Source: an uncultured Acidobacteriota bacterium
Lineage (GTDB): Bacteria; Acidobacteriota; Thermoanaerobaculia; Multivoradales; UBA5704
Assembly (NCBI GenBank): GCA_963770895.1
Contig: CAVYRF010000002.1
Span: 4,896,001-4,960,000, forward strand
DNA: 64,000 nt
Reading direction: 5' to 3'
Every line of letters begins with the position of its first letter. Positions within the stretch are counted from its first letter, which is position 1. The notes beneath the pieces are model-generated. The model saw nothing but the letters and a program-made list of their open reading frames with translations, had not been told where the DNA came from and did not search any database. The position numbers were made by a program, and so were the translations under genes. Shown here piece by piece: positions 27,538-64,000 of this stretch.

Positions 27538-27650
27538 TGTATCTGTTTACCGGGCCAGGGCTGGTAGCCGGGGTGTCGCAGTGGCCCGTCGAGGTAGCGT
27601 GAATCGAGCACTTGTGTCGCCTCTCGGATTTTGGTCTAATCCACATAGCG

Positions 27651-32783: not shown

Positions 32784-33476
32784 AATCATCGGCGACCCTA
32801 CCCTCGCGGACGGCATCCTCGACCGGCTCGTCCACGGCGCCTACGCCGTCGAGATGGATGGCGAATCGATGCGCGGCAAGCGCCGGAAGGCGGTCGTCAA
32901 CGACGACACGGATCCATCGTGAGCCGCCTTGACGAAATCCGCAAGCTCCTGTGGAAAGTCACCCCCTCTTCCCCCGGCACCCCCATCACCCCCGGCCGGA
33001 GGTCTGCCGGCCTATGGAAGGCTGCCCACCCCCGCCCTGCCCCCGGCACCCTCCCACAGGCCTTGGAAAACCGCTTTGCGGTTTCCCACAGCCCTCCGGC
33101 CCCGACGGCGACGAGCCAGACCGCTCTATACTGGAACAAGAAACAAGAGAGGAGATCTCGAGACCTCAAAGTGGACACCTTCAACTGAGGATCACCTGAG
33201 CGTCGCTTCGCTCCGATTGCTGTCCACTTTGGATCGGAACGGCTGTCCACTTTCGCCGGAATACGCATGAGCGTCCTGCGGACCTGTCATCAGCAGCATC
33301 TCGATCCTCTGCGGACCTGTACCCAGCTACTCCGGACGCCTGGAATACCGCCCCACGAGCTGCTGCCGGCGCCGCCGTGAGCCTCGCGGCCGACGCTCCA
33401 GGCGCCAGTGGCTTCACATTGCGCTCGAAATACTGAGCTGTCCAAGATCTCGGTCGGTAAACAGGTACGCTCCATT

Positions 33477-34345
33477 TTCCATTGACGCAGACGATAGCCG
33501 TTGCTGCCCCCACCATCAGCGGTGATGAGAAGAGTCCTTGCCTTGGGATAGAGCCGCCGCCCTTCGGCGCGCCACCAACCGCGAATCGACGCCACCGCGA
33601 AGGCGCCAGTGTCGTGGTCAATGCCTATCGTCACGAAGCCAGTGTTTCGACCCAGATCGTAGACACCGTACGGGTACGCGCGCGGCACGGAGGGAGCTGG
33701 AAAGTCGTGGACATTGACCCGCTGCGGATCCCCTCCCTTTCGCCACTGCTGGCCCTTGTTCTGGTAGTTGCCGAGGATCTCCTTCTTCTTCGTGTCAACC
33801 GAGATGACCGGCCGCTTTGCAGCCAAGGCTTTGCGCACTTGCTCGTTGATGTATTGAAACTGAGCATCGCGATCCGGATGGCTGCTCCCCTCGTCTGCCT
33901 TCCGGTTGCCTTGAAGGCTGTAGTCCATTTGTCGCAGCAACTGCGCCACCTTCTCATGGCTGACCGGATGGTTCTGAGCCGCAAGTTCCGCGGCGAGGAC
34001 GCGGGTGCTCTTGCTTGTCCAGCGTAGCGGGGACTCTGGGTCGCCGCTCGTCAGCGGCTCCACGAGAGCCTCCAACCGGCTCAGCAGGTCGGGGTCGAGC
34101 ATTTCCAGCGATGGTCGCCCACCGCCTTCGCGCCGGACCCGACCCGCAGGTAGAGGGGCACTCTCGAGTTCCTGTAGACCCTTCGTGATTGTGACGCGAG
34201 ACAAACCGCATGCCCGACTGACCGTCGACACACCGCCATGCCCCAGTTGACGAGCCTCGCTCGCCGCAAAGAGTCGTCGTGCACGCTCGTCCAGATGGGG
34301 CCAGAGGAGAGCCACCTTTTGCTGAAGCGATCGAAGATCTGTCAT
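33477..34345 (-). pseudogene. ISAzo13 transposase, N-terminal part
   Basis: LDERARRLFAA, GDPESPLRWTSKS, HPDRDAQF, ISVDTKKKE, ITADGGGSNG; cut at RQWKME. Confidence 0.92.
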
Positions 34346-34402
34346 CTCCAAATCGTTGTATCACCATCTCCACGGCATGTCAATGTTATTTATTGACGCT
34401 GC

Positions 34403-37400
34403 CTAACTCGGTGGTTCCGGCGAGTTGTCTGGGCTCGGTGGCTGAGGCTCGGTCGGATTGGGTGTTGGCTTCTGATCTGGCATAATATTGACACGCGTAT
34501 TCTCGCTAGGCTTCCCCCCTTCCCCCGCCTCAAAGTGTCCGTGAAGCTGAGGGGCTTTGACTTCGTGGGACCCAAATCTAATGATTCTGGTGCCGTCCGC
34601 TGAGACATATCGACCTGGTGAGACCTCAGTGTACCCATCACCTAGGTATTGTAGCGCGGCATCGAGAAATTCGGACTCTGATACGCTACCTCCGAAATAT
34701 TCTGGTGCACGCCCCTTTGGCGTAGAGCTACGAAGGTTTAACCCTGTATTATCGCCTGACTGACCCTCCGGCCGAAGTGTTTCCCAAGGACTCTGGGTAT
34801 CGGATTTTGGCGCAGCACTCTTGCGCAAAACAAAGTCGCCAAGGCGAATATCGCCGTCTTCACCTTCGAGGGTAGAGTCGCCGTCCGGAGTGCTCTTTGT
34901 TGCCGGAGGTGCGGGAGCCTCGATCTCTGTGCCGCTTGGGAAGATACTTGGTGTTTTACCCCCGCCGGCGGTGAAGCCGTGGATTGCGGCTCCGAGAACG
35001 GCACCGCCGACGGCAGATCCGGCGTATGTGCCTAAGCTTGAGACTTGGCCTTCGATTGCGTCACTGGTCCCTTGGCCGGCAAGGCCTCCGACGGCTCCTC
35101 CCACGGCCGTTGCGGTGATTGCACCGGCTCCCGCCGCTGCGGCTGCCGCTGTAGCGACTCCTCCTGTCGCTGCGCCCACGGCGGTGACCGCGAATGTTTT
35201 CGCGGCAAACTTCAACTCCTTCTTGACTTCTTTGTCGACTCCTTTGGCGACCTGAGTGAGGGTGGTGGCGTTGATGGCGTCGCCGATGCCGGCTTTGACC
35301 ATGATGGCGTCGGCTTCGGCGGGGGTGAGGCCGCCTTGTTGGACAAGGGCCAGATGGAAGGCGACGGGATCTTTCTTGGCTTGGGCTGTTGTTACGGCTT
35401 GGCGGTGGTCATTTTCATCGACGATGAAGGTCGTGCCCTGCTTGTTGACGGATGCCGCACGGCCATCAGGATCCAGGTACACGGTTGGGTTGGCGTAGGC
35501 GTAGAGGTAGCGGTGGAGGCTCGGTGGGTTGTCGGTTTTGCCGTCGGCGGGGTCTTCGGTTAGGAAGCGGCCGATGGTGGGGTCGTAGAAGCGGGCTTTG
35601 AAGTAGTACAAGCCCGTCTCGATGTCGAGCTCGTGGCCAGTGAAGGCGAAGGCGTTGAAGCTCCCGCCACTCGTCGAGCGGTAGTTGCCCCAGGCGTCGT
35701 ATTGATAGGTGGCCCGGAGGCTGCCGGTGGTGGTGGTGAGGTCGGTGATCGAGCCCAAGGCGTCGAAGAGGTAGAAGGAGCGGCCTTCGGTCTGCTGGTT
35801 TTGGGAGAGGAGGCGGTCGGGGCCGTAGTCGTATTTGGCGAGGGTCTGATTGTTGGCGTCGGTTTCCAGGAGGACGGATTTGTCGTCGAAGGTGTAGTGG
35901 ATGTAGCCGAGGGCGCCCTGCTTCAGGACTCTCAGGCCCTTGTAGTCGTACTCGTAGGTGCCCAGCGTCGAAGAGGCTTGCGAAACGGCGGTGAGCTGGT
36001 CGCGGACGTCGTAGTGGAAGGTGGTGGTGGTGCTGTTTTGGGTCTTTGCGAGCTGGTTGCCGTTGGCGTCGAAGGTGTAGGCGATGCTTTGCGCGCTGTT
36101 GAGGTTGTCGGTGAGGGTGGTGAGCTGGTGGCGCGCGTTGTAGGTCAGGGTGTGGTTGGTGAGGGGGGAGCTGTCGGCGTTGCTGGTGGCTTTTTCGGTG
36201 GTGCGGTCGCCGACCTTGTCGTAGGTGTAGGCGACCTGCTGGTCGGGGTAGGCGACGCCGGTGAGGCGGTCGGCGGGGTCGTAGGTGTAGGTGGTGGTCT
36301 GGCCTGCGGCGGGGCCGTTGGCGCGGATTTCAAGCTGGCTTGTGCGGTTGCTGTCGGGGTCGTACTGGTATTGGAAGTGGCTGAGGACGGTCGCGGCGCC
36401 GAGGCGGTTTTCCTGGACCTGGATGCGGGCGGCGGCGTCGTAGGTGGTGTTTTCGTTGGTGCCGTTGGGGTAGGTGACGGTCTGGATGCGGCTGTCGCGC
36501 AGGTAGGCGTAGTTGGTGATGCCGGCTCCGTTGACGTTGACGGCGGTGAGGCGGTTGAGGGCGTCGTAGGTGTAGCGGGTGACCAGGTTGTCGGGGTCCT
36601 GGAGGCTGGTGCGGTTGCCGTTGGGGTCGTAGGTGTAGGCGAGGGTGAGGCCGTAGCGATCGGTGACGGTGAGGAGGCGATCGAACAGATCGTAGGTGTG
36701 GGCGGTCTGGCGGGTGTGTGGGGCGCCGGACCAGGTTTCCTGGATCGCCGTGGGGTTGTTGTTGGGATCGTAGGTGAGGGCGATGGACTGGAGGTCGTCG
36801 GTGGTGGGCGGCGCCGGGGGCGGATAGGTGGCGAAGGTCTGGCGGTCGATGGCGTCGTAGGCGTAGGCGATGGTCTGGCCGTCGGCGTCGGTGAGGCCGG
36901 TGCGGTTGCCGTTGGGGTCGTAGGCGTAGGACTCGACGGCATTGTCGGGGTAGGTCTTCTGGGTGACTCGGTTGAGGATGTCGTATTGCCAGGCGGTGGT
37001 CTTGGATTCGCCGTCGGTGGTGGTGAGGCGATTGCTGTCCAGGTCGTAGGTGTAGCTGGTGCGATCGCCCACGGGGTCCTGGACGGCGGTGAGGCGGTTG
37101 GCCGCGTCGTAGGTGTAGGTCCAGGGTTGGCCGGGGAAGGCGGGGCGCTGTCTCTGGATGCGGTTGCCGTCGCCGTCGTAGGCGTAGGTGGTGGTGTCGC
37201 CGGCGTTGTCGGTTTCGGTGAGGAGGTGGCGCCGCAGGTCGTGGGTGTAGGTGGTGACGCGGCCTTCGGGGTCGGTGGCGTTGGCGCGGTCGCCCATGGT
37301 GTCCAGGGTGAAGGTGGTGATGGCGGCCAGCGGGCGCTCTTCGGCGGTCTGCAGGTTCCTTTCGTCGTATTCGTAGCCGGTGGTGTTGCTGTTGGCGTCG

Positions 37401-40400
37401 GTGACGAAGCGGCGGTTGCCGGCGGGGTCGTATTGGATGGTCTGCAGCAGCACTCCAGCCTTGGTAGTCTGGGTGAGGCGCCCTTCGGGGTCGTAGGTGT
37501 GGGAGCTGAGGGTGCCGCGGCGGTCGACTTCGGTGAGCTTGCTGCCCAGGCCGTCGTAGGTGAAGGTCTGGGTGTAGGCCAGCGGCTGCGGGGCGGTGGT
37601 CAGGATCAGCCGGTTGAGGGAGTCGTAGGCGAAGGCGGTGGTCTGGCCCTTGCGATCGGTCTGCGCCAGGCGGTTGCCGACGGCGTCGTAGGTGACGGTG
37701 GTGGTGTAGGCGAAGGGCTGCGGGTCGGTGGTCTGCACCAGGCGGTCGAGGCGGTCGAACTGATAGGTGGTGATCGACCCGCGCGGATCGGTTTCCGCGA
37801 CCTGGTTGCCGGCCACGTCCCAGGCCTTGGTGACCGTGCGGCTGGCGGGCAGATCCTGCTCGACGAGGCGGTGCAGCGCGTCGTAGTGGTCAGTGGTGAG
37901 GTTGCCGTTGGCGTCGGTCTGGGTGGTGGGGTCGCCGTTGGCGTCGTAGGTGGCGGCGCTGACGGCTCCGATCGTGTCGGTCGTCGCGATCAGGCGGTTG
38001 AGCGCATCGTAGGCGTGGGTGACGGCGTTGCCGTTGGGGAGCTGCTCGGAGATGCGGTTGTTGACCAGGTCGTAGCCGTAGGTGGTGACCAGGCTGCGGT
38101 TGGGCTGCGTGACCCGGTTGAGCAGCACGGTCGTCTGGGTGAGACGGTTGCGCGCGTCGTAGGCGAAGTTGGTGGTGTTGAGGAGCGGATCGATCTTGCG
38201 CGTGGTGTTGCCGTCGGCGTCGTATTCGAAGGTGGTGGTGTCGCCGAGCGAATCGGTGCGCTGGACGGCGCGGTTGAGGGGGTCGAAGACGGCGGTGTGG
38301 ACGCGGTCCTGCGGCTGGTTGCGCTGGCGCTCGCTGACCAGGTTGCCGTTGCCGTCCCAGGTGTCGACGGTCTCGGTGGGGGAGCCCGTCTGCCAGGGCG
38401 GCAGGTCCTTCTGGAGCATGCGGTTGAGCTCGTCGTAGGTGATCGTGGTGAGGCGCCCCAGCGGGTCCTGCTGCTGCGTGACGTTGCCGTTGCCGTCCAA
38501 GGTGAAGAGGGTCGACACGAGGCCCGAGTCGCTGGTGCGGTCGGTGCGGATGCGGCGGTTCAAGCCGTCGTAGGTGTGATGGGTGACGCGCGTGCTGAAA
38601 CCCGGCTGCGAGGAGTCGCTCAGGGTTTCGCTGGCGACGTTGCCGACCCCGTCGTAGGTGTAGGCGGTGGTCTTGCCGAGCGGTTCGGTGCGCCCTGCCA
38701 GCCGCTCGGCGTCGTCGTATTGGAAGGTGGTGTCGTGGCGCGGCGACGCGCTGTCGAACCAGTCGGTTTCGAGCGTCTTGTTGCTGGCCAGGTCGTACTG
38801 GTAGAGCTTGGTGCCGGCGGCGGCGTTGTCGATCTGCACCGGCCGCCCCTGCAGGTCGGAGGTGGTCGTCGTCACCCGCCCCAGGGCGTCGGTCCTGGTG
38901 ACGACGTCGCTGACGTCGTCGTAGGCGGTGGTTTCGACGGCCGGAGCGCTGCCGACCAGGGGGTAGGTCTTGCTGGTGACCCGGTTGAGCGTGTCGTAGG
39001 CGAAGCTGGTGACGTTGCCGTTGGGATCGGTCTGGGTGAGCGGCAGGCTGCGCACGCTCCAGGCGGTTGCGGTGACGCCGCCCAGCGGGTTCTTGCTGGT
39101 GGCGAGGTTGCCGTAGGCGTCGTAGGTAAAGGCCGTGGTGTTGCCGCGCGCGTCGGTGGTCGAGGCGCGGTCGCCGCTCGGCAGGTAGGTGTTGCCGATG
39201 GTCAGGATCTGCTGGTTGCCCGAATCGTCGTGGACGGTGACCTGCTGCTGCGTCAGGTTGCCGGCTCCGTCGTAGGTGTACGACGTGGTGACGCCGTTGC
39301 GGTCGGTGCGGGTGGCGACGCGCTGCTTGATGTAGGGCGGCGTGAAGTTGGCCGGCGGCTCGTAGGTGGTCTGGATCGAATAATTGTGGGTCTGCCCCTG
39401 GACGTCGGTGACGGCGACCGCTTCCGACACCTGGTTGCCGTAGGCGTCGTAGGTGTAGCTGGTGGTGACGCCGTTGGCGTCGGTGCGGCTGGTCATCAGC
39501 ACGTCGTCGACCGCCCAGGTCATCTGGGTGGTGTCCTGCAGCGGATCGACGATCTGCAGCGCGCTGCCGTACTGGTTGAGGGTGTAGGTGGTGAGCTTGC
39601 CGCGCGGGTCGCTGACGCCGACCCCCAGGCCTTGCGAGGCGCGGCTGACCAGGTCCGGCAGGTCGTAGCTGAACTGCGTGACGCCGCCCATCGGCTCGGT
39701 GAGCTGGGTGACGTTCCAGCTGGGCACCTGGACGTTGCCCTGCAGGCCGATCGCCGCCGCCCCGTACTGGTAGGTCGTGGTCGCGGTGTCGAGCTGGTTT
39801 TCGGCGGCGATCAGCTTGTGGCGCAGCGCCAGCCCGTACGACGGCGGCACGGCGTAGGTGTAGGTCTCGACGCGGCTGCCGCCCTCGCGGCTGGCCTCGG
39901 TGAGGTTGCCGTAGCCGTCGTACTGGAAGCTCATCGCCATGCCGTCGGGGCCGGCGACCTGACTGATCAGCGACCGCTGCTCGCCGGTCGGCTGCATGGC
40001 TGTCTTCTGGTAGGTGAAGGCGAGGGCGCGGCCGGCGTCGTCGGCGACGGTGAGCAGCAGCGGCGGCTGGGTGGGGTCGCTGGTGTCGTAGGTGAGCCGC
40101 GTGGTGAGGCCGTTGGGATCGGCGACGTAGGAGAGCGGGAACTCGGAGGGGGCGCCCGAGGTGCCGGGGATGAAGTGATAGCGCAGCCCGGACTTGCTGT
40201 AGAAGTCGAAGCTGCCGTCGGCGCTGTTGGCGACCAGGCTGCCGTGGTAGCCGCGCAGCGGCGTGAAGTTGCCGTGGCCGTCGCCGACGAAGCGCATGCC
40301 GGAGCCTTCGCCGCCGATGACGATGACGTCGCCGCAGGGGGTGACGACGATCTTCGAGTCGTAGCTGTGGCTCCAGCCGACGCCGAGCGGGCCGGGCTCG

Positions 40401-46447: not shown

Positions 46448-46470
46448 CGTCGGTTCGAGAGGCGGCGCGG

Positions 46471-55400: not shown

Positions 55401-58400
55401 CGCCGACGCGGCTGCCGCCCGCGGGCCGCGACAGGATCGCCGTCGGCAGGGAGGGGTCGACCACCGCCTGCGCCGGTGCCGAGGGGGCGCTGGCCAGGTC
55501 CTCCTGGTCGACCGCCACCAGCGTGTAGGTGTAGGTCCCGGCGCTCAGCCCGGCGTCGACGTAGGCGGTGCCGGTGAGCAGCTGCTGGGGATCGACCGCC
55601 GCGCCGTTGCGCAACAGGCGGTAGCCGGCCAGATCGGTCTCGCTGTTGGCGAGCCACGACAGGTGCACGCTCTGCTGGCTGACCTGCGCCGCGACGCCCT
55701 GCGGCGCCGCCGGCGGATGGGTGTGGACGTTCACCTGCACCTGGGTCGACGCCTGGTTGCCCGCCTTGTCGACGGCGGTCAGCTGGAGCGTCGCCGGGCC
55801 GTCCGGCGGCAGCGCGGTCCACGACGCGAGGGCGCCGGCGGTGACCGGCGCCGTGCCGGAGCCGACCGGCGAGAACAGCTGCGCCGCGCCGGGCGCGCTG
55901 CTGGCGACCGCCAGCTGGTAGCTCACCAGGTTGGCGTCCGCGGCCGTGCCGATGACGTTCATCGGCCCGGTGACGTAGGCGCCGGCGGCCGGCGTCGCGA
56001 TGGCGACGACCGGCGGCGTGTTGTCGATGGTGATCGCCGCCTGCGCGCTGGCGGTCTGCGCCGCCAGGTCGGTGGCCTCCAGGCGCAGCACGTAGGAGCC
56101 GCTGGCGACGCCGGTCAAGCTCCAGGCGAAGATCGGCGACGGCAGCGGCAGCGTCGTGCCGGTGGCGAGCGTCGTCCACGTCGCGGGCTGGGCGCCGGCG
56201 CCCAGCTGCAGCGTCCAGCTCTGCAGGTGGGCGTCGGTGATGGTGCCGGCGACCGGCACGACGCCGCCCACGGCGCCCAGCACGGCAGCGGCTGCGGGCG
56301 CCGCCAGGGTCACCTGGGGTGGCGTCGAGATCACGCCGAAGGGGATGATCTGCTCGGTCTGGTTCTGCGCCGCGTCGGCGGCGTCCACCTTGAGCGCGTA
56401 CTGGCCGTCGGTCAGGCCGGAGAGGCTGGCGAGCGCGGCGGCGGCGGTCACGGCGGTCGAGCCGGTGGCGATCTGGGTCCATGCCGGCGCCTGCGGCGTC
56501 GAGGTGATGGCGACGCTCCAGCTGGTGAGCGTCGGGTCGGTGATCGCGCCCAGGACCGACCCGGTCGGCGTCACCCAGCCGCCGGCGGCCGGGCGCGTCA
56601 CCGTCACCTGCGGCAGCGTGCCGTCCACCTGGACGGTGATCGCCTGCTGGTCGGTGTACTGGGCGTTGGTGGCCGAGGCCACCGAGAGCACCACCGAGTA
56701 GGTGCCGTCGGCGACCGTCGTGCCGGCGTCGTTCCTGCCGTTCCACACTGCCGCGGCGGAGCCCGCCGGCGCCGCCGCCCCCGCCAGGAGGGTGCGCACG
56801 GTGTTGCCGCCGGCGTCCTGCACGGTCAGGTTGGCGGTCACCGGCGAGCCGACGCTCCACAGGATGTTGGTGGTCTCCAGGCGGCCGTCGCCGTTGGGTG
56901 AGAAGAGGCGCGGCTGCGCCTCGAGGTCGGTGATCAGCAGGCTCAGGTTGGCCAGGTTCACCTGCACCGTCGTCTGCGCGGTGTTGCCGGCCAGGTCCAC
57001 CGCCGTCAGGCGCAGCGTGTAGAGGCCGGTCAGGCCGAAGGTATTGAAGGAGCCCAGGTAGCCGCCGATGACCGCCGACGTGCGGGTGGCGAGCGTCGCC
57101 CAGGTCTGCGGCGCGCTGCCGGCGCCGACCTCGAGCGACCAGCTCGCCAGGTTGAGGTCGTTGGCCGTCCCCTGCACTTCGACGACCAGGCCGAGCGGAT
57201 CGGCCGGCCCCGATGGGTAGGTGATGGCGACGACGGGCGGCGTGTTGTCCAGGATCAGGCAGGTGATCGCCGCGCCGTGGTTGCCGCAGTCGTCGTCGGT
57301 GAAGCCGGCGATGACCTGGTAGACCCCGTCCGCCAGGGTCGCGCCGTTGTCGTCCTCGCCGTCCCAGGCGACGTTTTGCGGCGTCCCCACCTCGACCCCG
57401 GAGACGATCTGGCGCACCGGCGGCGCGCCGGTTGCGGTGCAGGTGGTGGGGAGCTCCGGCCCCGCCTGCAGGTAGGCGGCCGGCACGACCGACAGGCCGG
57501 CGTGCGCCGGCTCGCCGGCGGCGACCGTCAGCGTCACGGTGTCGTCGACGCCGTCGCCGTTGGGCGAGAAGTACTGCGGGCCGGCCGTCAGGCTGGGATC
57601 GCTGACCACGGCGTCGACGGTGAAGGAGGTGGCGGCGCAGGTCGCCCAGCCGCTGGGGTTGGTCGCCTTGAGCTGGGCCGTCACGGTGCCGGCGACGTCG
57701 CCGACGGCGCCCAGCGCGCCGGAAACCTGGGCCGGCGTGCTGAGGTCGCCCGGCTGGTGGTCGCTCGGCTGGACCCCGCTGTCGGCCACCTCGCTGCCGT
57801 CGGCGGCCTGGAAGGTGAGCCTGTAGCCGACCGCGAGGGCGTCCTGGACGGTGCCCCGCACCACCACCCGGTTCTGGATGCCGCAGACGCTGCGGCCGGG
57901 AAGCGGGTAGGTGAAGGCGGCCGTGGGCGGCGTGTGCTCGACGGTCACCGGCACCGAGAGCAGGAAGGCGTCGCCGTGGATGTTGGTGACCTGGGCCTGC
58001 CAGGTGTAGGTGCCGGCAGGGGTCGATGCGGTGTCGAAGTCGTACTGGTAGAGCTTGTCGGCGGTCGGGTTGCTGACGCTGTAGAAGATGCCGTTGGCGT
58101 CGCTCAGGGTGAGCAGCTGGAGCGGCGTGCCGTCGAGGCTGTGCGGCGTCAGGTCGAGCACCCGCGCCGTCGCGGGGACGGCGTCGCAGGCCGCCGGCGA
58201 TACCGGTTCCAGGCTGGTTTCCAGGGCGACGCAGCTGAACTCGAAGCCCTCGGCGGGAATGGTGATGGTGTCGGTGACCGTGGCTCCCGTCGCCGGGTCG
58301 ATCTGCGGCAGGGTGGTCACGACCAGCGCCATCTGGTAGGGGATGCAGCCCTGCCATTCGGGCGAGGTGAAGATGAAGTTGGTGCCGTCGTTCGCCACCG

Positions 58401-61400
58401 GCGCGAAGGTCTGCGGAGCGTTGAAGCGCGGGTCCTTGGTGCTGGTCACGATGAGCGAGATCTGGCTCACTCCCGACAGGCCGGAGGTGGTCGCGACCAT
58501 CACCGGATCGCGGGGTGGATCCAGGTCCTGCTGGGTGAGCAGCGCGCCCACGGCGGAGCTGAACCGCAGCGGGTCGAGGATCTGCTGCAGGACGGCGCCG
58601 ATGGCGTTGAGCTGCACCAGCTGCGAGGTCCAGGTGGTGGCGGTGACGTCCACGGTGCGGACGCGCGCCACGGTCTCGACGCCCGGAGTGACGTTCTGGA
58701 GGTCCCAATCCATTTCGAAGACGGTGTTGGGGATGGCCGTCTGGGACACGTTCGAGCCGGGCGGATAGAAGGTGGCGATCGGCTCCGACACCCAGGCGTT
58801 GGGATCGGGCGTGCCGCTCGCGGGCGCCGGCTGCGTGTCGACGAACACCTGGACCATCGGCGCCAGGACCGACTCGCTGACCTGGATGCGGACCGGCGCC
58901 TGGATCTCGCCGTAGCGCAGCGGCGGCTGCGGCGGCTGGGGACCCGGACCGGCAATCGCCGGCACGCACGAGATCGGCGCGACCGGCAGCAGCTGGCCGG
59001 TCGCCGGGCTGAAGCCCTTGTTGCCGAAGCCGCTCAGGAAGAGCTGCTGCGGCCCCGGCGCCACCTGCTGCTGGGCGCTGTTGCCGGCGACGTCGGTGGC
59101 GAGCACGCGGAAGCTGTGGTTCTCGAACTGCGCCGCGGTGAGCTGGCCGGAGACCGCCGGCTCCCAATCCGCGGGCGCGGCGCCGACGCCGGTCTGGACG
59201 CTCACCGAGGCGAGGCCCACCGCGTCCTTGACCGCCGCGGAAAAAGCCGGCGCGTAGGCGAGGATGGACGGCGGCTGGCCGGCGGCTTGCGAGGGGTTGC
59301 CGATGCAAGCCTCGGCAGCGGTGACCCCGAGGGTGATCGCGGGCGGTTGGGTGGCGACGGTGATCGGCAGCTGGTAGCCCAGCACCTTCATGGTGTAGTC
59401 GCCGTCCGGCACGACCGTCCCGGCGTCGCTGGTGCCGTCCCAGGTGAGGTCGAAGGACTCGCCGACCTGGTCGTCGTCGGCGGTGATGGTGCGCACCGGG
59501 TTCGCGTTGGCGTCGTAGAAGACGAAGCTCAGGTGCACCGGCTGGAGCACCGTGTAGTGGATGTCCGCGGTGTCGTCGACGCCGTCGCCGTTGGGCGAGA
59601 TGTAGCGCGGCGTCAGGCTCAGGTCGGTGATGAAGGGCGAGGTGCTGGAGGAGGCGCGCGCCGTCGCCGTGCGGCTGTTGCCGGCGAGGTCGCGAACGGT
59701 CAGGCGCACCACGTACGAGCCTGGGCCGGGCGGCACCCAGGCGGTGAATTCGCCGGCCACGACCGGGGTCGACGAAGGCGGCGCGATCGGCGTCCACACC
59801 CCCGGATTGGCGGTGTTCTCATAGTCCAGCTGGTAGCTTGCGAAGTGCAGGTCGGCCGCGGTGCCGGAGAGGATCTCGGCGCCGGAAGCGGGATCGACGC
59901 GGATCTGCAGGTCGGCGGTGAGGTTCTGCAGCGACGCGAGCGCCCAGGTGTGACCCGCCGCCGCCTCGCAGCTGTTCGACTGGCCGCTCTCGTCGAAGGA
60001 GTAGAGCATGTAGCGGCCGGCCGGCGAGAAGGCCTGGAAGGAGAGGCCCTGGATCTGCGGCAGGAGCGGCGCCGAGGTGCCGGCGACCAGGTCGAAGAGG
60101 GTGGACGCGTCAGCGGCGCTGGCGTTGTCGGCGGTGTCGAAGAGGGCGAGCGCCAGCTGGTTGGGGGCCCACGTCAGGAGGGGATAGACCACCGGCTCGA
60201 CCGGCGCCGTCGCGGCGTCCCGCGGTCGCATGGTGGCGCCGGCGCGGGCGCCGGCCTCGGCCCTGGCCGCGGGCGCCATCGCGGCGGGTGCCGTCGCGGG
60301 CGGCGGCTGGTCCGCGGCCAGCCCTTCGGTGGCGTCCAGGGAGAGCTGCAGGCGGCCGGGCAGCACGTCGTTCCAGACCACCTCCATCTGGGCTTCGTGC
60401 AGGTCGATGGTGCGGCCGTCGAGCGCCGCCACGGCGGCCCGCACGTCGCGGCCGTCCGCGAGGCGGTGGGCGGCGGTGGGGGCCTGGCGGTTGAGGTTCG
60501 ACAGCAGCGACACGCGGTCGACCGTGGCGGCGCTCGCTCCGGTCTGGCGGATGCGCAGGCGCAGCTCGCCGCGGGTGCCGCGCAGGCGGCGCCCGAGATC
60601 CAGGCGGTGCTCGCGCTGGCGCGGGTCGAAGTGCAGCGCGCCGCGATCGACCCAGGCGTGGCCGTCCCAGACGGAGACGTGGAAGGACGTGCAGCCGGGC
60701 TGGAAGACCTGGGTGTAGGCGACCGTCGCCAGGGCACCGGTGGCCGGGTCGATCGTCACGGTCCGCTCGAAGCCCTCGCAGTTGTTGGGGCTGCGATATT
60801 CGAGCTGCGCCGCCAGGGTGGTCGCGTCGGACGACCACGACACGGCGACCGAGGGCGCGTCGTAGGAGGGCGCCGCCGGCAGCCCCAGCGCGAAGTCCGG
60901 GATGTCGGTGGGCATCGCGAAGGTGCCGAGCGGCGTGCCGTCGCGGCCGAAGACCTCGACCGCGCCGACGAGGCCCACCGCCAGCTGCTGGCTGTCGGGC
61001 GACCAGGCGGTGGAGGTGACGTAGCCGCTGACCGGGATCAGGTCGCCGCCGCCGCCGGCGAGGTCCACGATCCACACCCCCGAGCTGTCGGCGTTGCCGC
61101 CGGCGCCGGCGAGGAGCGTGTGGTCCGGCGACACCGCGCCGGCGCCGGTGACGGCGAACGAGTCGGGGCCGTCGCCGGTGCTGTCGAACAGCTGGCGCGC
61201 CGCGCCGCCGCCCACCGGCAGCACCTCGATGCCGCCGGTCTGGGAGGCGACGATGACGTTCTGGCCGGCCGGATCGAAGGTCAATAGCTCGGCCGACACG
61301 TCGGTCGAAAGGGCCGCCGGCGGCGCGGCGCCGTTGGTGGCGACGGTCCACAGGCCGCTCGCCGAGCTGGCGGCGGCGGTGCCGTCGAAGGCCAGGAGCC

Positions 61401-64000
61401 TCCCGTCCGGCGAGCCCAGGAGCTGCGACGGGACGCTGCCCAACGGCGCCGCCGGGCCGCCGAGAAAGAAGGTGTCGGGCACGATCGTCTGGATGCCGCC
61501 GCCGGTCGCACCCTCGGAGTAGATGCCGATGCCGTAGATGTTGGTGGGGTCGGGCAGGATCTCGTCGAAGTAGACCGTCTGCTCGTCGGCGCTGTAGAAG
61601 AGCACGCCGGGGCTCTGCGCCGGGCAGGTCAGGTTGAACGAGGTCAGGTAGGGCGTGCCGAGGGCGGCGAAGAGCGGCGAATGATCGGTGTCGACGGTGG
61701 CGACCGTCTCGCCCTGCTCGCTGCCGTCGCCGCCCAGCACGCGCAGCACGTAGTCGCCGTCCGCCACCACCCGGCCCAGGTCGTCCTTGCCGTCCCAGAC
61801 GAAGCTGCCGCCGGTGACGCCGGTGTAGCTGGTGCTCGCGACGTTGCGCACCGCGGTGCCCTGGGTGTCGACGATCTGGATGCTCGCGTTGGTCGTGCCG
61901 CCCAGGCGGAAGTCGAGCTCCGTCGTGTCCTGGACGCCGTCGCCGTTGGGCGAGAAGTAGCGGTTGGTGACGGTGAAGTTGCCCTGCTGCACGGTGATCG
62001 CGAGGCTCGCCTGGTTGTTGGCCTTGCTCGCTTCGACGACCGCGCCGGCGGGGTCGACGATCACGAACAGAGTGCGGTTGCCGCCGGGGCCGAGAGTCCA
62101 GGTGATGGTGCCGGGGGCGGTGCCGTTCCCCGGCAGGAGCGGGATGGTGACGGTGCCGGCCTGGGCGCCCCCGTGCGCCGGATCGCCGTCGTAGGCGGCG
62201 ACGAGCAGGTTCGGGATCGACTGCTGGCCCAGGTTGGCGACCGTCACCGTGAGGGTCACCGCCTGGCCGGGGACCGGGAAGGCGGGCGCCAGCTGCAGCG
62301 ACGCCGCGGTGATCGCAGCGTCGGGGAGCGACAGGATCGGCAGGACGATGAAGGTGGCGAGGTCGGCGCGGCTGAACAGCGACTGCTGGACGTTGGGGTC
62401 GACCGCGGCGTAGATCACCTGGCTGCCGGCGGGCGCCAGGCTGGGCGCCGTCGCGGCGGCGGTGGCGGTGCCGCCGGCCGGCACGGTGGGGATCACGGCG
62501 AGCGGCGCCAGCAGCGTGCCGCCCTGGGCGGGGTCGCCGAGGTAAAAGCCTACCTGCAGGTCGGTCACGTCCTGGACGCCGGGGTTGTGGACCACCAGGC
62601 TGGCGGTGAGCGGCCGGCCCTGGAGGCCGGGGTTGGGGGCGACGGTGAGGTCGCCGTCGCCCACCTCGATCTCGGCCTGCGTCACGGCGGCGGCGCTGAA
62701 GGCGAGCGACGCCTGGTTGTCAGCCGGGTTCGAGTCCTGGGGGAGCACCTGCACCTGGGCGGTGAAGGTGAGGTTGCCGGTCAGGTTCACCCGCCAGTTG
62801 ACCGACTCCTGGGCGCTGCCGCCGGCGGGGAGGATGACCGTGCCGGGAGTCAGCGTCTCGGTCGTGGTGCCGTCGGTCACGCTGTAGGCGACGGTCGCCG
62901 ACGGCGCGTCGACGGTGCCGTAGTTGTGGAAGGTGACCTTGAAGGTGGCTTCCTGGCCGGTGTAGGCGGGGCCCGCGAGCTGGATGTCCGCGGCGGCGAG
63001 CCCGAGGTCCAGGTTGGCGACCGTGGTGACCGAGGCCTGGGCGCTGTTGTTGCTCTTGTCGGCCTCGGAGATCAGGTTGTTGGGATCGGCGACGACCGTG
63101 TAGGTGGTGGTGCCGGGGGCCGCCAGGGTGGCCACGAAGTTGGCGACGGCGCTCGAGCGGGCGGGCAGCGCGACGGTGACGTCGCCCAGGGCGGTGCCGG
63201 TCTGCGGCGTGCCCTGGTAGAGGCGCACGTCGACGGTGGGCGCGGCGGTCTGGCCGTTGTTGTGCACCACCGCTGTAATGGCGAGCTGCACCGGCAGGGC
63301 CGAGGGCGCCGGCGGGCTGATCGAGATGTCGCTCGGCGCGATCGCCAGGTCGACGCCGGGAGGGGGCGCCGCGACGGTGATGGCCAGGGTCGCATGGTTG
63401 TCGGCCTTCGACAGCTCGGCCGTCTGGTCGTCGGGGTCGATCACCGCGTAGAGGACGTGGCTGCCGGCCTTGCCGAGCGTGTTCCAGGTGGCGGTCAGGG
63501 TGGCGGTCTGGCCCGAAGGGAGCGGCGGGATCGCCACGTCGGCGCCGATCGCGGCGCCGCCCGCTGCCGGGGCGCCGTCGTAGAGGCGCACCACGCCGGC
63601 GGGGGTGGCGACGTCGCCGTTGGACAGCACCGTCATGGTGATCGTCACCGTGTCGCCGTCGTCGGGAGCGGCGGGGGCGGCGGCGAGCGGCCCGGAGAAC
63701 GTCCAGTTGGGCAGCGTCACGCGCTGCAGGGCGGCGACCACGGCGGCGGTCGTCGCGGTGCTCCCTTCCCAGCTGCCGCTCGTCGCCTGGTGGGTGCCCA
63801 GGTAGGCGGCGGCGGAAGCGGAGTTGATCGCCGTGCCGCTTGCGAGGTCGAACGCCGCTTGCAGGGCGGCGGCGGTGTCGTGGGCGGTCGAGGGGCTGTC
63901 GCCGAAGCCGCCGTCGGGGTTCTGGCGCGCCGCCAGGAAGGCCAGGGCGCCGGCGGCGGCGGTTTGGCCGGCGGTGCTGCCGGAGGCAGGGCCTGCCAGG
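46471..64000 (-). CDS. Giant extracellular multidomain adhesin-like protein (>5,800 aa; 5' end outside the window)
   Basis: Frame stays open past GTG 63741 to the window edge (ALAFLAARQNPDGGFG). CARDB (IDPD..E..KADN), four xSPNGDG FlgD-Ig-type motifs, WSPDG propeller blades, FN3, discoidin-like, DUF11, two Calx-beta, and a C-terminal choice-of-anchor A (FNLFALGN..GRLAAGGN). Confidence 0.92.
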   Translation of the reverse strand, partial: LAGPASGSTAGQTAAAGALAFLAARQNPDGGFGDSPSTAHDTAAALQAAFDLASGTAINSASAAAYLGTHQATSGSWEGSTATTAAVVAALQRVTLPNWTFSGPLAAAPAAPDDGDTVTITMTVLSNGDVATPAGVVRLYDGAPAAGGAAIGADVAIPPLPSGQTATLTATWNTLGKAGSHVLYAVIDPDDQTAELSKADNHATLAITVAAPPPGVDLAIAPSDISISPPAPSALPVQLAITAVVHNNGQTAAPTVDVRLYQGTPQTGTALGDVTVALPARSSAVANFVATLAAPGTTTYTVVADPNNLISEADKSNNSAQASVTTVANLDLGLAAADIQLAGPAYTGQEATFKVTFHNYGTVDAPSATVAYSVTDGTTTETLTPGTVILPAGGSAQESVNWRVNLTGNLTFTAQVQVLPQDSNPADNQASLAFSAAAVTQAEIEVGDGDLTVAPNPGLQGRPLTASLVVHNPGVQDVTDLQVGFYLGDPAQGGTLLAPLAVIPTVPAGGTATAAATAPSLAPAGSQVIYAAVDPNVQQSLFSRADLATFIVLPILSLPDAAITAASLQLAPAFPVPGQAVTLTVTVANLGQQSIPNLLVAAYDGDPAHGGAQAGTVTIPLLPGNGTAPGTITWTLGPGGNRTLFVIVDPAGAVVEASKANNQASLAITVQQGNFTVTNRYFSPNGDGVQDTTELDFRLGGTTNASIQIVDTQGTAVRNVASTSYTGVTGGSFVWDGKDDLGRVVADGDYVLRVLGGDGSEQGETVATVDTDHSPLFAALGTPYLTSFNLTCPAQSPGVLFYSADEQTVYFDEILPDPTNIYGIGIYSEGATGGGIQTIVPDTFFLGGPAAPLGSVPSQLLGSPDGRLLAFDGTAAASSASGLWTVATNGAAPPAALSTDVSAELLTFDPAGQNVIVASQTGGIEVLPVGGGAARQLFDSTGDGPDSFAVTGAGAVSPDHTLLAGAGGNADSSGVWIVDLAGGGGDLIPVSGYVTSTAWSPDSQQLAVGLVGAVEVFGRDGTPLGTFAMPTDIPDFALGLPAAPSYDAPSVAVSWSSDATTLAAQLEYRSPNNCEGFERTVTIDPATGALATVAYTQVFQPGCTSFHVSVWDGHAWVDRGALHFDPRQREHRLDLGRRLRGTRGELRLRIRQTGASAATVDRVSLLSNLNRQAPTAAHRLADGRDVRAAVAALDGRTIDLHEAQMEVVWNDVLPGRLQLSLDATEGLAADQPPPATAPAAMAPAARAEAGARAGATMRPRDAATAPVEPVVYPLLTWAPNQLALALFDTADNASAADASTLFDLVAGTSAPLLPQIQGLSFQAFSPAGRYMLYSFDESGQSNSCEAAAGHTWALASLQNLTADLQIRVDPASGAEILSGTAADLHFASYQLDYENTANPGVWTPIAPPSSTPVVAGEFTAWVPPGPGSYVVRLTVRDLAGNSRTATARASSSTSPFITDLSLTPRYISPNGDGVDDTADIHYTVLQPVHLSFVFYDANANPVRTITADDDQVGESFDLTWDGTSDAGTVVPDGDYTMKVLGYQLPITVATQPPAITLGVTAAEACIGNPSQAAGQPPSILAYAPAFSAAVKDAVGLASVSVQTGVGAAPADWEPAVSGQLTAAQFENHSFRVLATDVAGNSAQQQVAPGPQQLFLSGFGNKGFSPATGQLLPVAPISCVPAIAGPGPQPPQPPLRYGEIQAPVRIQVSESVLAPMVQVFVDTQPAPASGTPDPNAWVSEPIATFYPPGSNVSQTAIPNTVFEMDWDLQNVTPGVETVARVRTVDVTATTWTSQLVQLNAIGAVLQQILDPLRFSSAVGALLTQQDLDPPRDPVMVATTSGLSGVSQISLIVTSTKDPRFNAPQTFAPVANDGTNFIFTSPEWQGCIPYQMALVVTTLPQIDPATGATVTDTITIPAEGFEFSCVALETSLEPVSPAACDAVPATARVLDLTPHSLDGTPLQLLTLSDANGIFYSVSNPTADKLYQYDFDTASTPAGTYTWQAQVTNIHGDAFLLSVPVTVEHTPPTAAFTYPLPGRSVCGIQNRVVVRGTVQDALAVGYRLTFQAADGSEVADSGVQPSDHQPGDLSTPAQVSGALGAVGDVAGTVTAQLKATNPSGWATCAATSFTVDAVVSDPSLTAGPQYFSPNGDGVDDTVTLTVAAGEPAHAGLSVVPAAYLQAGPELPTTCTATGAPPVRQIVSGVEVGTPQNVAWDGEDDNGATLADGVYQVIAGFTDDDCGNHGAAITCLILDNTPPVVAITYPSGPADPLGLVVEVQGTANDLNLASWSLEVGAGSAPQTWATLATRTSAVIGGYLGSFNTFGLTGLYTLRLTAVDLAGNTAQTTVQVNLANLSLLITDLEAQPRLFSPNGDGRLETTNILWSVGSPVTANLTVQDAGGNTVRTLLAGAAAPAGSAAAVWNGRNDAGTTVADGTYSVVLSVASATNAQYTDQQAITVQVDGTLPQVTVTRPAAGGWVTPTGSVLGAITDPTLTSWSVAITSTPQAPAWTQIATGSTAVTAAAALASLSGLTDGQYALKVDAADAAQNQTEQIIPFGVISTPPQVTLAAPAAAAVLGAVGGVVPVAGTITDAHLQSWTLQLGAGAQPATWTTLATGTTLPLPSPIFAWSLTGVASGSYVLRLEATDLAAQTASAQAAITIDNTPPVVAIATPAAGAYVTGPMNVIGTAADANLVSYQLAVASSAPGAAQLFSPVGSGTAPVTAGALASWTALPPDGPATLQLTAVDKAGNQASTQVQVNVHTHPPAAPQGVAAQVSQQSVHLSWLANSETDLAGYRLLRNGAAVDPQQLLTGTAYVDAGLSAGTYTYTLVAVDQEDLASAPSAPAQAVVDPSLPTAILSRPAGGSRVGGVVSIVGTAEKLNDFAEYRVYVTPLGSAPPNLLRTSPLAVVDEELAEWDTTAIPDNSALTIRLEAQDLQGNVAAAEITVTTDNTPPAAPTGLTATAQGTGIQVAWNPNTESDLAGYLLYRNGQLVDAVGAVVGDLTPYLLQTTSWSDANLPDGTFVYVLYALDTAGNQSAPSAPAQASLDNHPPHVVITQPAAGTAFQSTLDVVGTSADLDIASVQFQWQAAGGTAWTNLGAPLTAAPWEVLWDASSLAYGNYLIQAVATDTGGATDPAPAPIAVAHQNLVAPPAPAGLAAAVAGGTVTLTWSAATPPVAGLAGYLVTRTAADGTATQLTPAPIAATTYADQGLAAGTWSYTVTAVNTAGNASQPAGPVTAVVYAPVLAQPYTPTAASSTALAGSGAAAGAQVAGTDSGPAGSVAIPAVAADGTGSFAWNGLPLALGTNVLTVTATDASGNVSQPASVHVVAGAPPAQPTGLTATAATDGTLSVALAWNPNPAADQVIGYRLLRDGADDPAPTPVDGPLSAGASSPAASDPDGAPAAIDGDETTFWVPEAGSDPDLRNQWLEVDWPAPRLLIQVQIDWAGGPDGTPQNAGDFDLQGWDGSVWVPLAQVRGASGAQTVQTLPLSYLTGKLRLQLLPTSAEPWVAELRVYERPLTAATAATDAPANGNHSYQVVAVGPLGLESQPSAAAAVAVANAGPPAVTLAGAAVGASVGLTWTASADANLAFYQVLREGTQIATVTAPTTAYTDTGRPNGTWHYTVVAVDTAGNAGPPSNTVAVTVAVAPPPAGLAPVLTFPAISTLAFATTGATADLAGTAAPGATVVLTPPAGTGGTRSTQAAAAVATADAGAAPGAPAVPSPDGRYLLLPQTGQQVVLYDFQGAGGGASLTLPAAANGLAGGWLADGSGLLLLSGSGEIDSYRFAGAVRTAVATMDWVASVAAAPDGLRLAAVGSVGGQSGLWIFDPTAPAAAGWTLVAAIDPSLAPGIAAPVWSPEGSWLAYLGPLPAGGTGGAGGSGGATGLVVVQTAAPNAAALVEANPGSGRPGFTPDGSAVAFTQAQAAGGEKVRLATVGSGAAVDLTDVEAGPLLPQLSPDGTGFAYAGVAGLMVAPLAPFAGGSAPGSVLSDLGGNDAADVAWVPGGYLVADAGDELRIAPAGRFTFAGQQLQLGPNTFTATATDAAGNVSAPSAPRQVDRLAANLPDLAIAPADMAVIPAAPLPGQALRISATVHNQGPADAPATTLALTAYGPGGAQVQLAAALAVPAIPAGSAATLYQDGAIAGPVGAWTLAAQIDPQGLVQELRKDNDQAQIAFQVVAAGPPTVAIATDQASYQPSSTVTASVTVWNGSAPWSGQAVVTIEDSQGNAVTTLPALAVGQLAYGQRWTQQTTWNTGATFAGSYLADVKLEDGQGSVVAEAVAPFTIVTVAQLTAAVATDSTTYPVGASVHVTAQVGYPTGDAALTGVAVHLQVLAPAAAGSGAAPAVLGDWTRALGTLLPGGQGAVSVDWPSGTTAAGTYQVAMTVLDGGQAAAAAGTQFSLTAAAAAVTGTLSLNDRAPSAGSTLAASYGVTNPGAALAGVAVRVRVLDAASGHELARQSATLDLGAGATVAGSASFDTTTLGLGGRLAVLEADLPAAGGSGGGGGATQTVTLAVVGFTIYDRTPPAVTITQPAAGAAVGGAFQVIVTVRDPLSAVTAVAVSLDGGAWQPAAPADPTAGTYRLALTGVAAGAHTLTAQATDAAGNSAQSAAVAVTVSSAPPVITITGVAQGGLYDTAVTPVVTITAATATYSATVTLDGQPFTSGTAVAAPGSHTLAAAVTDAAGNQASASVTFTIDTTPPAITITGVAQGGLYNTAVTPVVTVTDAYSATQTITLNGQPFASGTAVTAAGSYTLAVTATDAAGNQASASVTFAIDKTPPVISVTGVGTGGVYGTTVTPVVTVTDSHPGTQTITLNGQTFTSGTPVSAEGSYTLAVSATDAAGNQSSLTVTFALDKTPPVITVGGVTNGATYTAPVTPVVTVTDAHPGTVTATLNGQPFVSGTQVSAAGNYQLQVAAVDAAGNQSQAGVSFAIEAAAPPALTFTKTAALLVDADGNGVVSPGDTLKYTLTLTNTGGPANAVTVTDAIPANTNLVAGSITASQGTVAGQNPVQVTVGTVLGSAPVTITFQVVIANPLPAGVSAVSNQASAAVQGLPTLLSDDPSTPQAGDPTVTGVTLPLSLSVADTTVTSPASGSVPALFPVSLSAPAPTAVSVQYAAVAGTAAAWVDFLPVAGTLTFSPGTVQQDVLVPVLADPQLAGAASFNLQLSQPQGAALARGTALGTIQAGPACASPNLLANPGAELPTASDLIPDWDLVAGTTWQVGSAPPAPFAGDDDFLTQDAAGEIKQDVDLSAWAQKIASAGGQTFAFQGALLTGNAGGGAAASTARIVVEYRDAANVNVLGSYDSGWTASAQGWLAVADQRQAPAGTGWVRVRLLSQLPAGGGGTAWFDGLSLVAVETPALAALDAAALSPAAGQSEPVVVQVKLSCAASQAVTVHYATVDDTAVAGTDYQTASGTLTFAPGTVEQSVQVTALGIAGDTVDRQFQVVLTQPAGAAVAKSAAQVVLLPRPFCPQPPAYWRHHLESWTASTLTLGGVAYGQGAVLGILGYAGNDPLWLLAQQLAATTLDLAAGGATGGQTAAANADAFLAQHAIGTTLAGSDPQTAASLTAALVSYDSGTCPLVCSADPLGAAGRFNLFALGNVTQSGTDTQGRLAAGGNATLASYSVGQSLTATGGTDDVLIAGGSLSFNGGTVSHGNAVYGSALSLTSVNIPNGTARHDQPLDFAGTGRALTILSTYWSTLAANGTTTVQPWKAIQLAGTDPTLNVFSVHGSDLAAAVSFSIQVPAGSTALVNVNGTADQMQNFGFQLTGVTASQVVYNFYQATTLSLSGIGVPGTVLAPRAAVTFSNGNINGSLVGASVSGGGQSNESLFTGCLPVGH
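49200..50140 (-). repeat. Four tandem ~79-aa Ig-like repeats
   Basis: PP.I...GV..G..Y...VTPVVT.T....TL.GQ.F.SGT.V...G...L.....DAAGNQ units spaced 237-240 bp apart. Confidence 0.8.

Follow-up and report, generated by a model that had tools for sequence, protein, structure and literature searches.

A giant partner protein predicted to dock an inactive-transglutaminase RHS toxin in an uncultured Acidobacteriota bacterium

The locus described here lies in a stretch of 64,000 nucleotides (nt) of DNA (the window; C2:4896001-4960000) from the genome of an uncultured soil Acidobacteriota bacterium (8.16 Mb in 3 contigs, 70.7% GC, 94.95% complete) and consists of two very large genes, one for a giant multidomain protein and, directly downstream, one for the RHS toxin P0001 (Table 1). 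Beyond the window the giant open reading frame (ORF) continues for 535 further codons (~1.6 kb) to a GTG at C2:4961601 (window-equivalent 65601), giving a full protein of 6,376 amino acids (aa) with a GC content at third codon positions (GC3) of 0.97. Exactly 23 nt separate its TGA stop codon (46473-46471) from the toxin ATG at 46447. The original prediction for this DNA had described the pair as a giant of >5,800 aa with CARDB, FN3, Ig and choice-of-anchor-A domains that ends 23 bp before an RHS toxin of ~4,000 aa. Both ORFs and their spacing agree with our analysis, whereas the FN3 label is unconfirmed, because PF00041 gave no match in the giant at E<=0.01.

The toxin starts with a signal-peptide-like segment, in keeping with the signal peptide proposed for it earlier. 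Signal peptides were judged by a hydrophobicity heuristic alone, according to which 37 of 46 family members, P0001 among them, have N-termini of this kind. Behind the segment runs a P/A/Q-rich low-complexity stretch, which takes up ~500 of the ~1,900 aa previously read as N-terminal domains. In the following transglutaminase-like (TG) module, Transglut_core matched residues 675-816 with 42.8 bits; between this match and DUF6531 lies a weak Big_1 match (16.9 bits, under the cut-off). At the position of the catalytic Cys all aligned relatives have G-N-D (G-N-D-x-D-Q-A-S-L-L), and the triad Asp is lost in the RHS subfamily ('PLAPA'), which bears out the label of a pseudo-transglutaminase. Searches with Pfam and NCBIfam returned none of the PAAR, VgrG, TpsA, LXG/WXG, SpvB and TcdB families in P0001, as had been noted from its translation. 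An adaptor to a type VI secretion system (T6SS), a Tc toxin or a type IX secretion system (T9SS), named beforehand as evidence against the two-protein idea, was sought in the N-terminus with the same two libraries and not found; Pfam likewise gave no NHL or Tox-GHH family. The tip at the other end matched no Pfam family at E<=0.1. Its nearest Atlas clusters are unnamed ones from Bacillota (scores of 0.93 for the first and 0.90 for the second, in which 13% of members carry LXG), and its first ~230 aa are shared with RHS1507, a truncated copy in the same window, after which the two diverge.

In the giant, Pfam and NCBIfam identified CARDB (149.6 bits), FlgD_ig (93.3), Big_13 (125.8), Big_3_3, Calx-beta (86.7) and F5_F8_type_C (34.7) domains. 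The choice-of-anchor A/pAdhesive_15 domain at the C-terminus is accessory: among the relatives only L014 aligns that far, and tblastn alignments of the other partners end near giant residue 6116-6152. A CHU_C, T9SS type-B-like (TIGR04131-like) match of 62.6 bits lies at residues ~1211-1286 and, given this internal position, is not a C-terminal sorting signal. The N-terminal part, which extends beyond the window, starts like a signal peptide, contains a conserved HExxH domain as well as 'QNxDGGWG' repeats, and includes an alpha/alpha toroid whose sequence gives PDB profile matches to squalene-hopene cyclases (E 1e-18). In an AlphaFold2 (AF2) model of giant residues 38-760 (predicted local distance difference test, pLDDT, 87.4), the toroid occupies model residues ~330-595, is of the class II terpene-cyclase/prenyltransferase type (1gsz_A: Z 26.4, root-mean-square deviation (rmsd) 2.7, 256 aligned) and is followed by a CARDB domain. 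As modelled, the toroid has its fold in common with class II terpene cyclases and prenyltransferases, and we take this likeness as one of fold only.

The HExxH...HW domain ahead of the toroid (giant residues ~38-360, window-equivalent 64519-65490; loci L069-L085) retains both HExxH and the downstream HW motif in all aligned giant homologues. The region (giant ~40-350) matched no Pfam or NCBIfam family and no PDB relative by profile, and in both fold searches with the 723-residue giant model the listed matches were taken up by the toroid. In the Atlas it fell to unnamed Acidobacteriota clusters, with a weak lead to Peptidase_M64 (score 0.81; family in 15% of members). On its own the domain occurs in 59 of the 401 Acidobacteriota genomes sampled, mainly in proteins of 600-1,100 aa and mostly without TG genes nearby; the TG query matched 8 of the 401.

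Conservation of the pairing was assessed by a locus scan with one genome per species and a three-sequence alignment of the TG region, which covered 43 TG-module loci. Loci with at least 1.5 kb of upstream flank (34 of 43) were taken as assessable, and the 9 with less were left out. An ORF was counted as a giant-like partner if it was on the same strand as the TG gene, measured 800 aa or more, aligned with the giant of the window and either stopped no farther than 520 nt ahead of the TG start or ran into the TG gene. Such an ORF lay directly upstream in 18 of the 34 assessable loci, with a 4-nt overlap in six; a toroid-bearing ORF was present elsewhere in the locus in 4 more, and another large, cohesin-bearing ORF lay upstream in 2. 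Co-occurrence of giant and toxin, the neighbourhood check named in the original prediction, was therefore found, and in relatives the two are often translationally coupled. In all five further genomes examined, a full-length giant of 5,880-6,870 aa stood exactly upstream of the TG-RHS gene, its N-terminus 43-68% identical. A second giant in G404 (contig C42) reaches the contig end. The genome of the window itself holds a second, diverged module (C1:591068-622742), in which the giant is 53-61% identical and split into two overlapping ORFs of 1,731 and 5,315 aa by an apparent frameshift near residue 1630, followed by a TG-RHS ORF of 4,228 aa with a TG region 59% identical. Throughout the 8.16-Mb genome the toroid profile matched 3 ORFs only, two of them being the window giant and the C1 giant. 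A single ORF of 6,863 aa (P0045, on a 31-kb assembly contig) combines giant-like Ig domains, a TG module (3474-4136) and RHS, and is possibly a natural fusion of both genes or an artefact of assembly or gene calling. One 'Candidatus Multivoradales' metagenome-assembled genome (MAG; loci L017-L021) carries five TG-RHS genes, three of them in tandem within ~50 kb; a giant or a 1,126-aa giant remnant precedes only some of these, and L017 and L020 are preceded by a 196-aa ORF without a family.

The ~650-aa TG module also stands at the head of non-RHS toxins. In Pseudalkalibacillus (L039) it is joined to PT-HINT and an AHH nuclease and follows a 1,567-aa protein with toroid and VWA domains, and in an Acidiferrobacterales MAG (L041) it is joined to a peptidase M23, with toroid ORFs on both sides. 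The TG protein of a Chromatiaceae locus (L033) is overlapped by an 885-aa toroid protein, and in Rhodoferax (L050) and Magnetococcales (L051) a toroid ORF lies upstream of the TG gene. G221 has the reverse order, its TG gene preceding and overlapping that of a 2,172-aa toroid protein. The HExxH profile had no match in loci L014-L056. Judged from these profile comparisons, the element common to the partners is the toroid, not the HExxH domain, and the toroid was for this reason chosen for complex prediction.

On its own, the TG module (P0001 620-1300) was predicted by AF2 as one compact unit (pLDDT 90.7, predicted template modelling score (pTM) 0.91), the first part of which resembles transglutaminase (TGase)-fold proteins (3isr_A: Z 12.5, rmsd 3.7, 154 aligned). 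Foldseek gave no match to the module at E<=0.001, and the part past the TGase core (model residues ~310-680) had no convincing structural match. Predicting the complex of TG module and toroid resulted in an interface score (ipSAE) of 0.91 in 3 of 3 runs, compared with 0.01, 0.00 and 0.00 for the controls, with 112-113 confident contacts, a partner pLDDT of 91 and agreement of at least 98% of contacts between runs. The mark set for the tool is reached by 116 of 157 solved complexes and by 2 of 215 mismatched pairs, counts that hold only roughly here, because custom alignments were supplied. To our knowledge, no TGase-toroid complex has been solved that the predictor might simply have memorised. 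The predicted interface comprises residues 653-658, 690, 813-830 and 903-915 of P0001 and residues 390-397, 431-434, 463-473, 505-521, 567-575 and 612-617 of the giant. On the toxin side it includes two loops conserved in the family, which carry the motifs PYxNYRG...W and LGLLPxxLP (Table 1), both of which are kept in all aligned rows with a giant or toroid partner, except for the variant L045. The predicted docking fits the idea, put forward from the outset, that the giant is a scaffold presenting the RHS cage: the contact between the two proteins is predicted well above the best control, whereas surface anchoring and delivery stay conjectural. Taken together, our results lend real computational support to the core of the original prediction, a two-protein arrangement of scaffold plus toxin.

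A different arrangement was observed in Chloroflexota. In L046 and L047, the upstream partner is a protein of 1,800 aa without a toroid that instead carries a Cohesin domain at its N-terminus (34.6 and 30.1 bits, above cut-off). L047 has, in place of the PYxNYRG loop, an insert with a match to Dockerin_1 (E 0.0018; 18.9 bits, cut-off 22.9), and a weaker dockerin-like insert is present in the second loop of L049 (15.6 bits, cut-off 22.9). If real, this would be an exchange of one docking pair for another, placed exactly in the loops that are predicted to contact the toroid, as would be expected if the job of the TG module is docking.

A length-matched search with P0001 residues 600-1950 returned 45 proteins, of which 41, at ~3,400-3,950 aa, combine PF01841, PF20148 and PF05593 (Transglut_core, DUF6531 and RHS); the homologues have varied tips, for example PT-HINT/Hint_2, TNT, Tox-SHH, WHH and colicin-DNase. 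Toxins of this build were described by Zhang et al. 2012 (PMC3482391), whose sections on the class set out a signal peptide, an inactive TGase, in some cases Ig domains, and RHS repeats, assign the toxins to a route by Sec and the type II secretion system (T2SS), propose an anchoring role for the inactive TGase, or peptide binding in general, name no signature neighbour gene, and record that Sec-type polymorphic toxins regularly come with processing proteases. P0001 shares with them a signal-like N-terminus, a triad-deficient TGase fold, an RHS array after the TGase and a variable C-terminal toxin tip. The cognate immunity gene expected directly downstream in this class was not seen, which concerns the state of this copy and not its architecture. 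P0001 is a further member of the toxin class described in 2012, from which the present case differs in having a dedicated partner gene and a specific predicted socket.

Because class and Sec route were both described by Zhang et al. 2012, the claim that the toxin architecture is undescribed fails, and the list of established RHS routes in the original prediction, which lacked this Sec/T2SS class, was incomplete. What had been presented as an undescribed two-giant-protein system thus holds for the partner and the docking mode, which are absent from the literature searched, and not for the toxin half. A word search of PMC3482391 found neither prenyltransferase, squalene, cohesin, dockerin nor CARDB, and the full-text literature searched, with subscription journals and supplements outside it, contains no description of a conserved partner, of TG-toroid docking or of a cohesin-dockerin replacement. 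The partner is what appears to be new, and it points to an as yet undescribed way of mounting RHS toxins. Two further texts, PMC12096838 ('inactive transglutaminase', on membrane-vesicle mutants) and bioRxiv 2023.11.21.568195 (on Omnitrophota giant genes), were considered and are unrelated.

With regard to the secretion route, searches of the same genome for VipB/TssC, Hcp and PAAR gave 0 matches, with an E. coli control positive in all three. A search for SprA_N returned nothing, the control genomes being equally silent, and the SpvB, TcdB and TcA families were found neither in P0001 nor in the three pieces into which the giant was divided. Inspection of 20 kb on either side of the window, which the original prediction had suggested for the upstream side, revealed no secretion apparatus. 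The genome has two secretins and a T2SSL match of 24.4 bits, below the cut-off. Export of both proteins by Sec is most likely, judging from the hydrophobicity heuristic and the family pattern, and the T2SS, since two secretins are present, is the likeliest candidate for passage through the outer membrane.

On balance we consider it probable, if only slightly so, that the two genes form a polymorphic-toxin module in which the RHS cage is mounted non-covalently on the giant scaffold through TG-toroid docking. The downstream gene would encode a Sec-exported inactive-TGase RHS toxin made up of the ~650-aa TG module, Ig-like spacers, DUF6531, the cage and a variable tip, and the upstream, presumably co-transcribed gene a Sec-exported giant with the HExxH domain, the toroid and ~5,700 aa of CARDB, Ig, Calx-beta and lectin-like domains. 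The PYxNYRG and LGLLPxxLP loops of the TG module are predicted to plug into the toroid near the giant N-terminus, the ~5,700-aa array would act as a stalk that presents the RHS cage and probably also binds target cells, and the tip would be freed through the self-cleavage motif of the RHS core, following established RHS biology. Also by inference, the giant would be anchored, both proteins would cross the outer membrane, and the tip would be delivered upon cell contact. More tentatively, it is possible rather than probable that these genes belong to a widespread and unrecognised plug-socket display system, in which a pseudo-TG plug and a toroid socket would serve RHS, PT-HINT/AHH and M23 toxins in diderms and monoderms alike, a dedicated scaffold protein, which is a giant in Acidobacteriota, would mount and aim Sec-exported toxins, and cohesin-dockerin would have been swapped in for this pair in some Chloroflexota.

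Gene adjacency and docking prediction apply in the same way to a released binary toxin, a soluble complex in which the giant would be a receptor-binding carrier unattached to the producer, like the A component of ABC/Tc toxins. The lectin-like domains of the giant (F5_F8_type_C, Calx-beta and the ice-binding-like adhesive domain) suit such a carrier, as does the fact that no membrane anchor or sorting signal was found on it. We regard a released toxin as doubtful, however, since the searches of the giant returned neither a TcA-like domain nor one for pore formation or translocation and since arrays of tens of Ig-like domains are characteristic of fibrillar adhesins attached to cells. A role of the giant as a maturation or export helper, with the HExxH domain processing the toxin or the toroid holding it in the periplasm until export and the Ig array being an unrelated adhesin, would explain why HExxH and HW are kept in all aligned giant homologues, and processing proteases are regular in Sec-type polymorphic toxins according to the part of Zhang et al. 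2012 (PMC3482391) that treats them. Such a role is nevertheless unlikely: the distant toroid partners in L014-L056 gave no HExxH profile match, the domain is found alone in 59 of the 401 genomes and there mostly away from TG genes, and the searches made assigned it no fold, the M64 lead from the Atlas being weak.

That the two genes have no functional link at all, as chance neighbours with a synteny inherited in one lineage and a falsely predicted interface, would be in line with the assessable loci that have no partner within the flank (10 of 34), with the Acidobacteriota kinship of many positive loci and with the occurrence of false passes in the calibration of the tool (2 of 215). This is very unlikely, given that Pseudomonadota, Bacillota, Magnetococcales and 'Multivoradales' all have the pairing, with toxin bodies that differ and the two genes in either order, that the pair has stayed together in a same-genome copy diverged to 53-61% identity, that the toroid profile matches just 3 ORFs in 8.16 Mb, and that the docking controls scored 0.00-0.01. 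Most characterised Gram-negative Rhs toxins are, in the portion of the literature covered, T6SS cargo, and the giant contains internal CHU_C/T9SS type-B-like domains; the toxin might accordingly be cargo of a known dedicated machine encoded elsewhere, such as a T6SS, a T9SS, a Tc/type X secretion system (T10SS) or a type V (T5SS) or type VII (T7SS) secretion system. We consider this extremely improbable, because the toxin is devoid of PAAR, VgrG, TpsA, LXG, SpvB and TcdB domains, TssC, Hcp and PAAR went unmatched in its genome, the CHU_C-like domain lies inside the giant and not at its C-terminus, and signal-peptide-like N-termini are the rule in the family (37 of 46).

Several observations weigh against the docked two-gene module that we favour. 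The evidence for binding is all computational and comes from one domain pair, and conservation at the predicted interface is only modestly above that of the rest (0.56 versus 0.48 in the TG module; 0.57 versus 0.52 in the toroid). Both Dockerin_1 matches are sub-threshold. No large partner lies within the flank in 10 of the 34 assessable loci, some of which are less negative because of what their genomes hold elsewhere: L017 and L020 are additional toxin copies, others in their genome being coupled to a giant, and the genomes of L026 and L029 have ~6,000-aa giants with a toroid on other contigs. The toroid was not found in G409 and G410, two of the five genomes searched for it. Many of the loci are related to one another or share a MAG (L017-L021; L028/L035/L042; L046/L047; L052/L054), and the counts therefore overstate independence; the single-ORF form P0045 may be an artefact. 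Neither an anchor for the giant nor an outer-membrane translocator dedicated to the pair turned up in the 20 kb to each side, and the case for a T2SS is built on two secretins plus a T2SSL match below threshold. An insertion sequence (IS) with the ISAZ013 transposase sits just downstream of the P0001 stop, with no immunity ORF seen in the gap, and leaves the toxin without a visible immunity gene, so that the present-day activity of this copy is uncertain.

Among known systems, the Tc (ABC) toxins, composed of TcA and a TcB-TcC RHS cocoon, resemble the proposed module in the non-covalent mounting of an RHS cage on a very large, neighbour-encoded partner. The partner here is an Ig/CARDB array with a toroid and not a pentameric channel, with SpvB, TcdB and TcA not returned, and the docking element is a pseudo-TGase module, compared with the TcB beta-propeller of Tc. 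The 'toxin on a stick' design of CdiB/CdiA is likewise comparable in its long filament, polymorphic tip and downstream orphan tips, but no TpsA/FhaB domain or CdiB-type transporter was found, and stick and toxin are two proteins here. Cellulosome-type cohesin-dockerin systems also use a large secreted scaffold that displays cargo through a small docking module. Chloroflexota TG loci seem to use this very pair (Cohesin at 30-35 bits and the sub-threshold Dockerin_1-like insert in the TG loop), whereas the pair in the window would rely on pseudo-TGase loops and a toroid. In WapA, which occurs in monoderms, cell-wall-binding repeats of the same polypeptide do the holding; in contrast, the predicted holder here is a giant protein encoded by its own gene, in a diderm host. 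What the two have in common is the signal-peptide-dependent export of a surface-held RHS cage toxin without a T6SS, WapA of Bacillus subtilis and Streptococcus suis being portrayed in the relevant part of PMC12704120 as a Sec-exported, wall-associated RHS toxin.

Bacterial teneurin-like proteins (TLPs; Raoelijaona et al. 2026, PMC13018210) are, as far as the account given there goes, also Sec-signal toxins with a YD/RHS shell and variable adhesion domains. A TIP domain is reported there for 96% of TLP N-termini; P0001 has a TG module in its place, and Pfam returned no NHL or Tox-GHH family for it. The same source states that the delivery mechanism of Sec-signal shell toxins is still to be elucidated, and the holding and delivery of Sec-exported RHS and teneurin-like toxins is accordingly an open question (PMC13018210). 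For the inactive-TGase class, our analysis contributes a conserved partner gene, a docking prediction at the level of residues and an apparent non-homologous replacement by cohesin-dockerin. This amounts to a bench-testable hypothesis and offers an interpretation for 'transglutaminase-like' proteins, giant as well as mid-size, that number in the thousands, the TG module family comprising 4,263 representative clusters at E<=1e-30 and 8,296 at E<=1e-10. If true, plug-socket display would be a new delivery class alongside contact-dependent inhibition (CDI), T6SS-Rhs, WapA and Tc.

Table 1 Features of the window, with positions numbered from its first nucleotide
Feature	Position	Strand	Basis and remarks
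Giant partner gene	46471..64000	-	ORF and translation; C-terminal 5,842 of 6,376 aa; open at window edge
Alpha/alpha toroid, in-window end	63691..64000	-	Giant residues 362-637; remainder at window-equivalent 64001-64518; predicted docking socket
Choice-of-anchor A/pAdhesive_15 domain, giant C-terminus	46513..47232	-	Pfam 190 bits; TIGR04215 197.4 bits
TG-RHS polymorphic toxin gene (P0001)	34403..46474	-	4,023 aa from TTG; 4,014 aa from ATG at 46447
Signal-peptide-like segment	46217..46306	-	RRWR, hydrophobic core (ORF residues ~57-80) and APA/Q; Kyte-Doolittle window heuristic; homologue N-termini
TG module (P0001 620-1300)	42575..44617	-	Inactive transglutaminase core 44027-44452 and ~450 aa without recognisable PDB match; one compact unit
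PYxNYRG...W loop (P0001 813-830)	43985..44038	-	Predicted interface; R817 in 91% of rows, W828 in 100%
LGLLPSSLP loop (P0001 903-915; family LGLLPxxLP)	43730..43768	-	Lowest-error predicted contacts; P909 83%, L912 80%, P913 86%
DUF6531	40289..40507	-	Pfam 43.4 bits, residues 1990-2062; precedes RHS cage
RHS/YD repeat cage	35462..40177	-	RHS_repeat 385.4 bits, 23 stretches; TIGR01643, TIGR03696
Rhs-associated core	35462-35701	-	Rhs_assc_core 68.9 bits, residues 3592-3671; PxxxxDPxG motif
Toxin tip (~335 aa)	34406..35422	-	Helical part, Gly/Ala-rich hydrophobic stretch, ~150 aa without named family
ISAZ013-type DDE transposase	33290..34351	-	Pfam 289.8 bits; 51 nt downstream of P0001 stop
RHS2048, 5'-truncated copy	20542..26688	-	97% identical to P0001 1897-3672 (DUF6531 onward); other tip, weak Ntox28 match
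HEAT-repeat ORF behind RHS2048	19968-20552
TG1660, 3'-truncated copy	14551..19533	-	N-terminus and TG module, 93% identical to P0001 1-1596; without RHS part
RHS1507, 5'-truncated copy	8039..12562	-	92% identical to P0001 2534-3919
Weak Imm50-like ORF behind RHS1507	7654-8190
Orphan cassette	5429..7576	-	TG-region fragment 6328-7576, 99% identical to 41795-43042; overlaps other-frame ORF ending in YwqJ-like deaminase

Outside the pair, the heavy rearrangement of the window is typical of an RHS locus. Comparison of the DNA with itself and of the proteins with each other showed three partial toxin copies at 92-99% identity, and the tips differ between P0001, RHS1507 and RHS2048; truncated copies with other tips are the usual raw material for RHS tip exchange. 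An IS cluster at 27612-34351, made up of IS66, IS21 istA/istB, Mutator and ISAZ013 elements, lies between the intact toxin gene and the fragment copies, and a further Mutator transposase is located at 3214-4503. A Gly/Ala-rich hydrophobic segment precedes differing toxin ends at 35000-35300 (P0001), 8400-8700 (RHS1507) and ~6050-6330 (the deaminase orphan), and this common part of the tip may be a membrane-entry or pre-toxin module. More DUF6531/RHS genes, without a TG module, are found at contig ends (C1 2242546-2242761 and C2 5821555-5832828), where the assembly probably breaks at RHS repeats. Within 20 kb, the upstream flank of the window contains DUF6600, ABC1 kinase, fasciclin, GMC oxidoreductase, NusB, LeuRS, LptE and Tol-Pal genes, and the downstream flank includes a TonB-dependent receptor gene. 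On that downstream side, in the region before the window start (C2:4876001-4896000), a 2,779-aa giant with Big_5/CopC repeats is followed by three tandem phage-tail-collar genes, with a TolC-like OEP gene adjoining.

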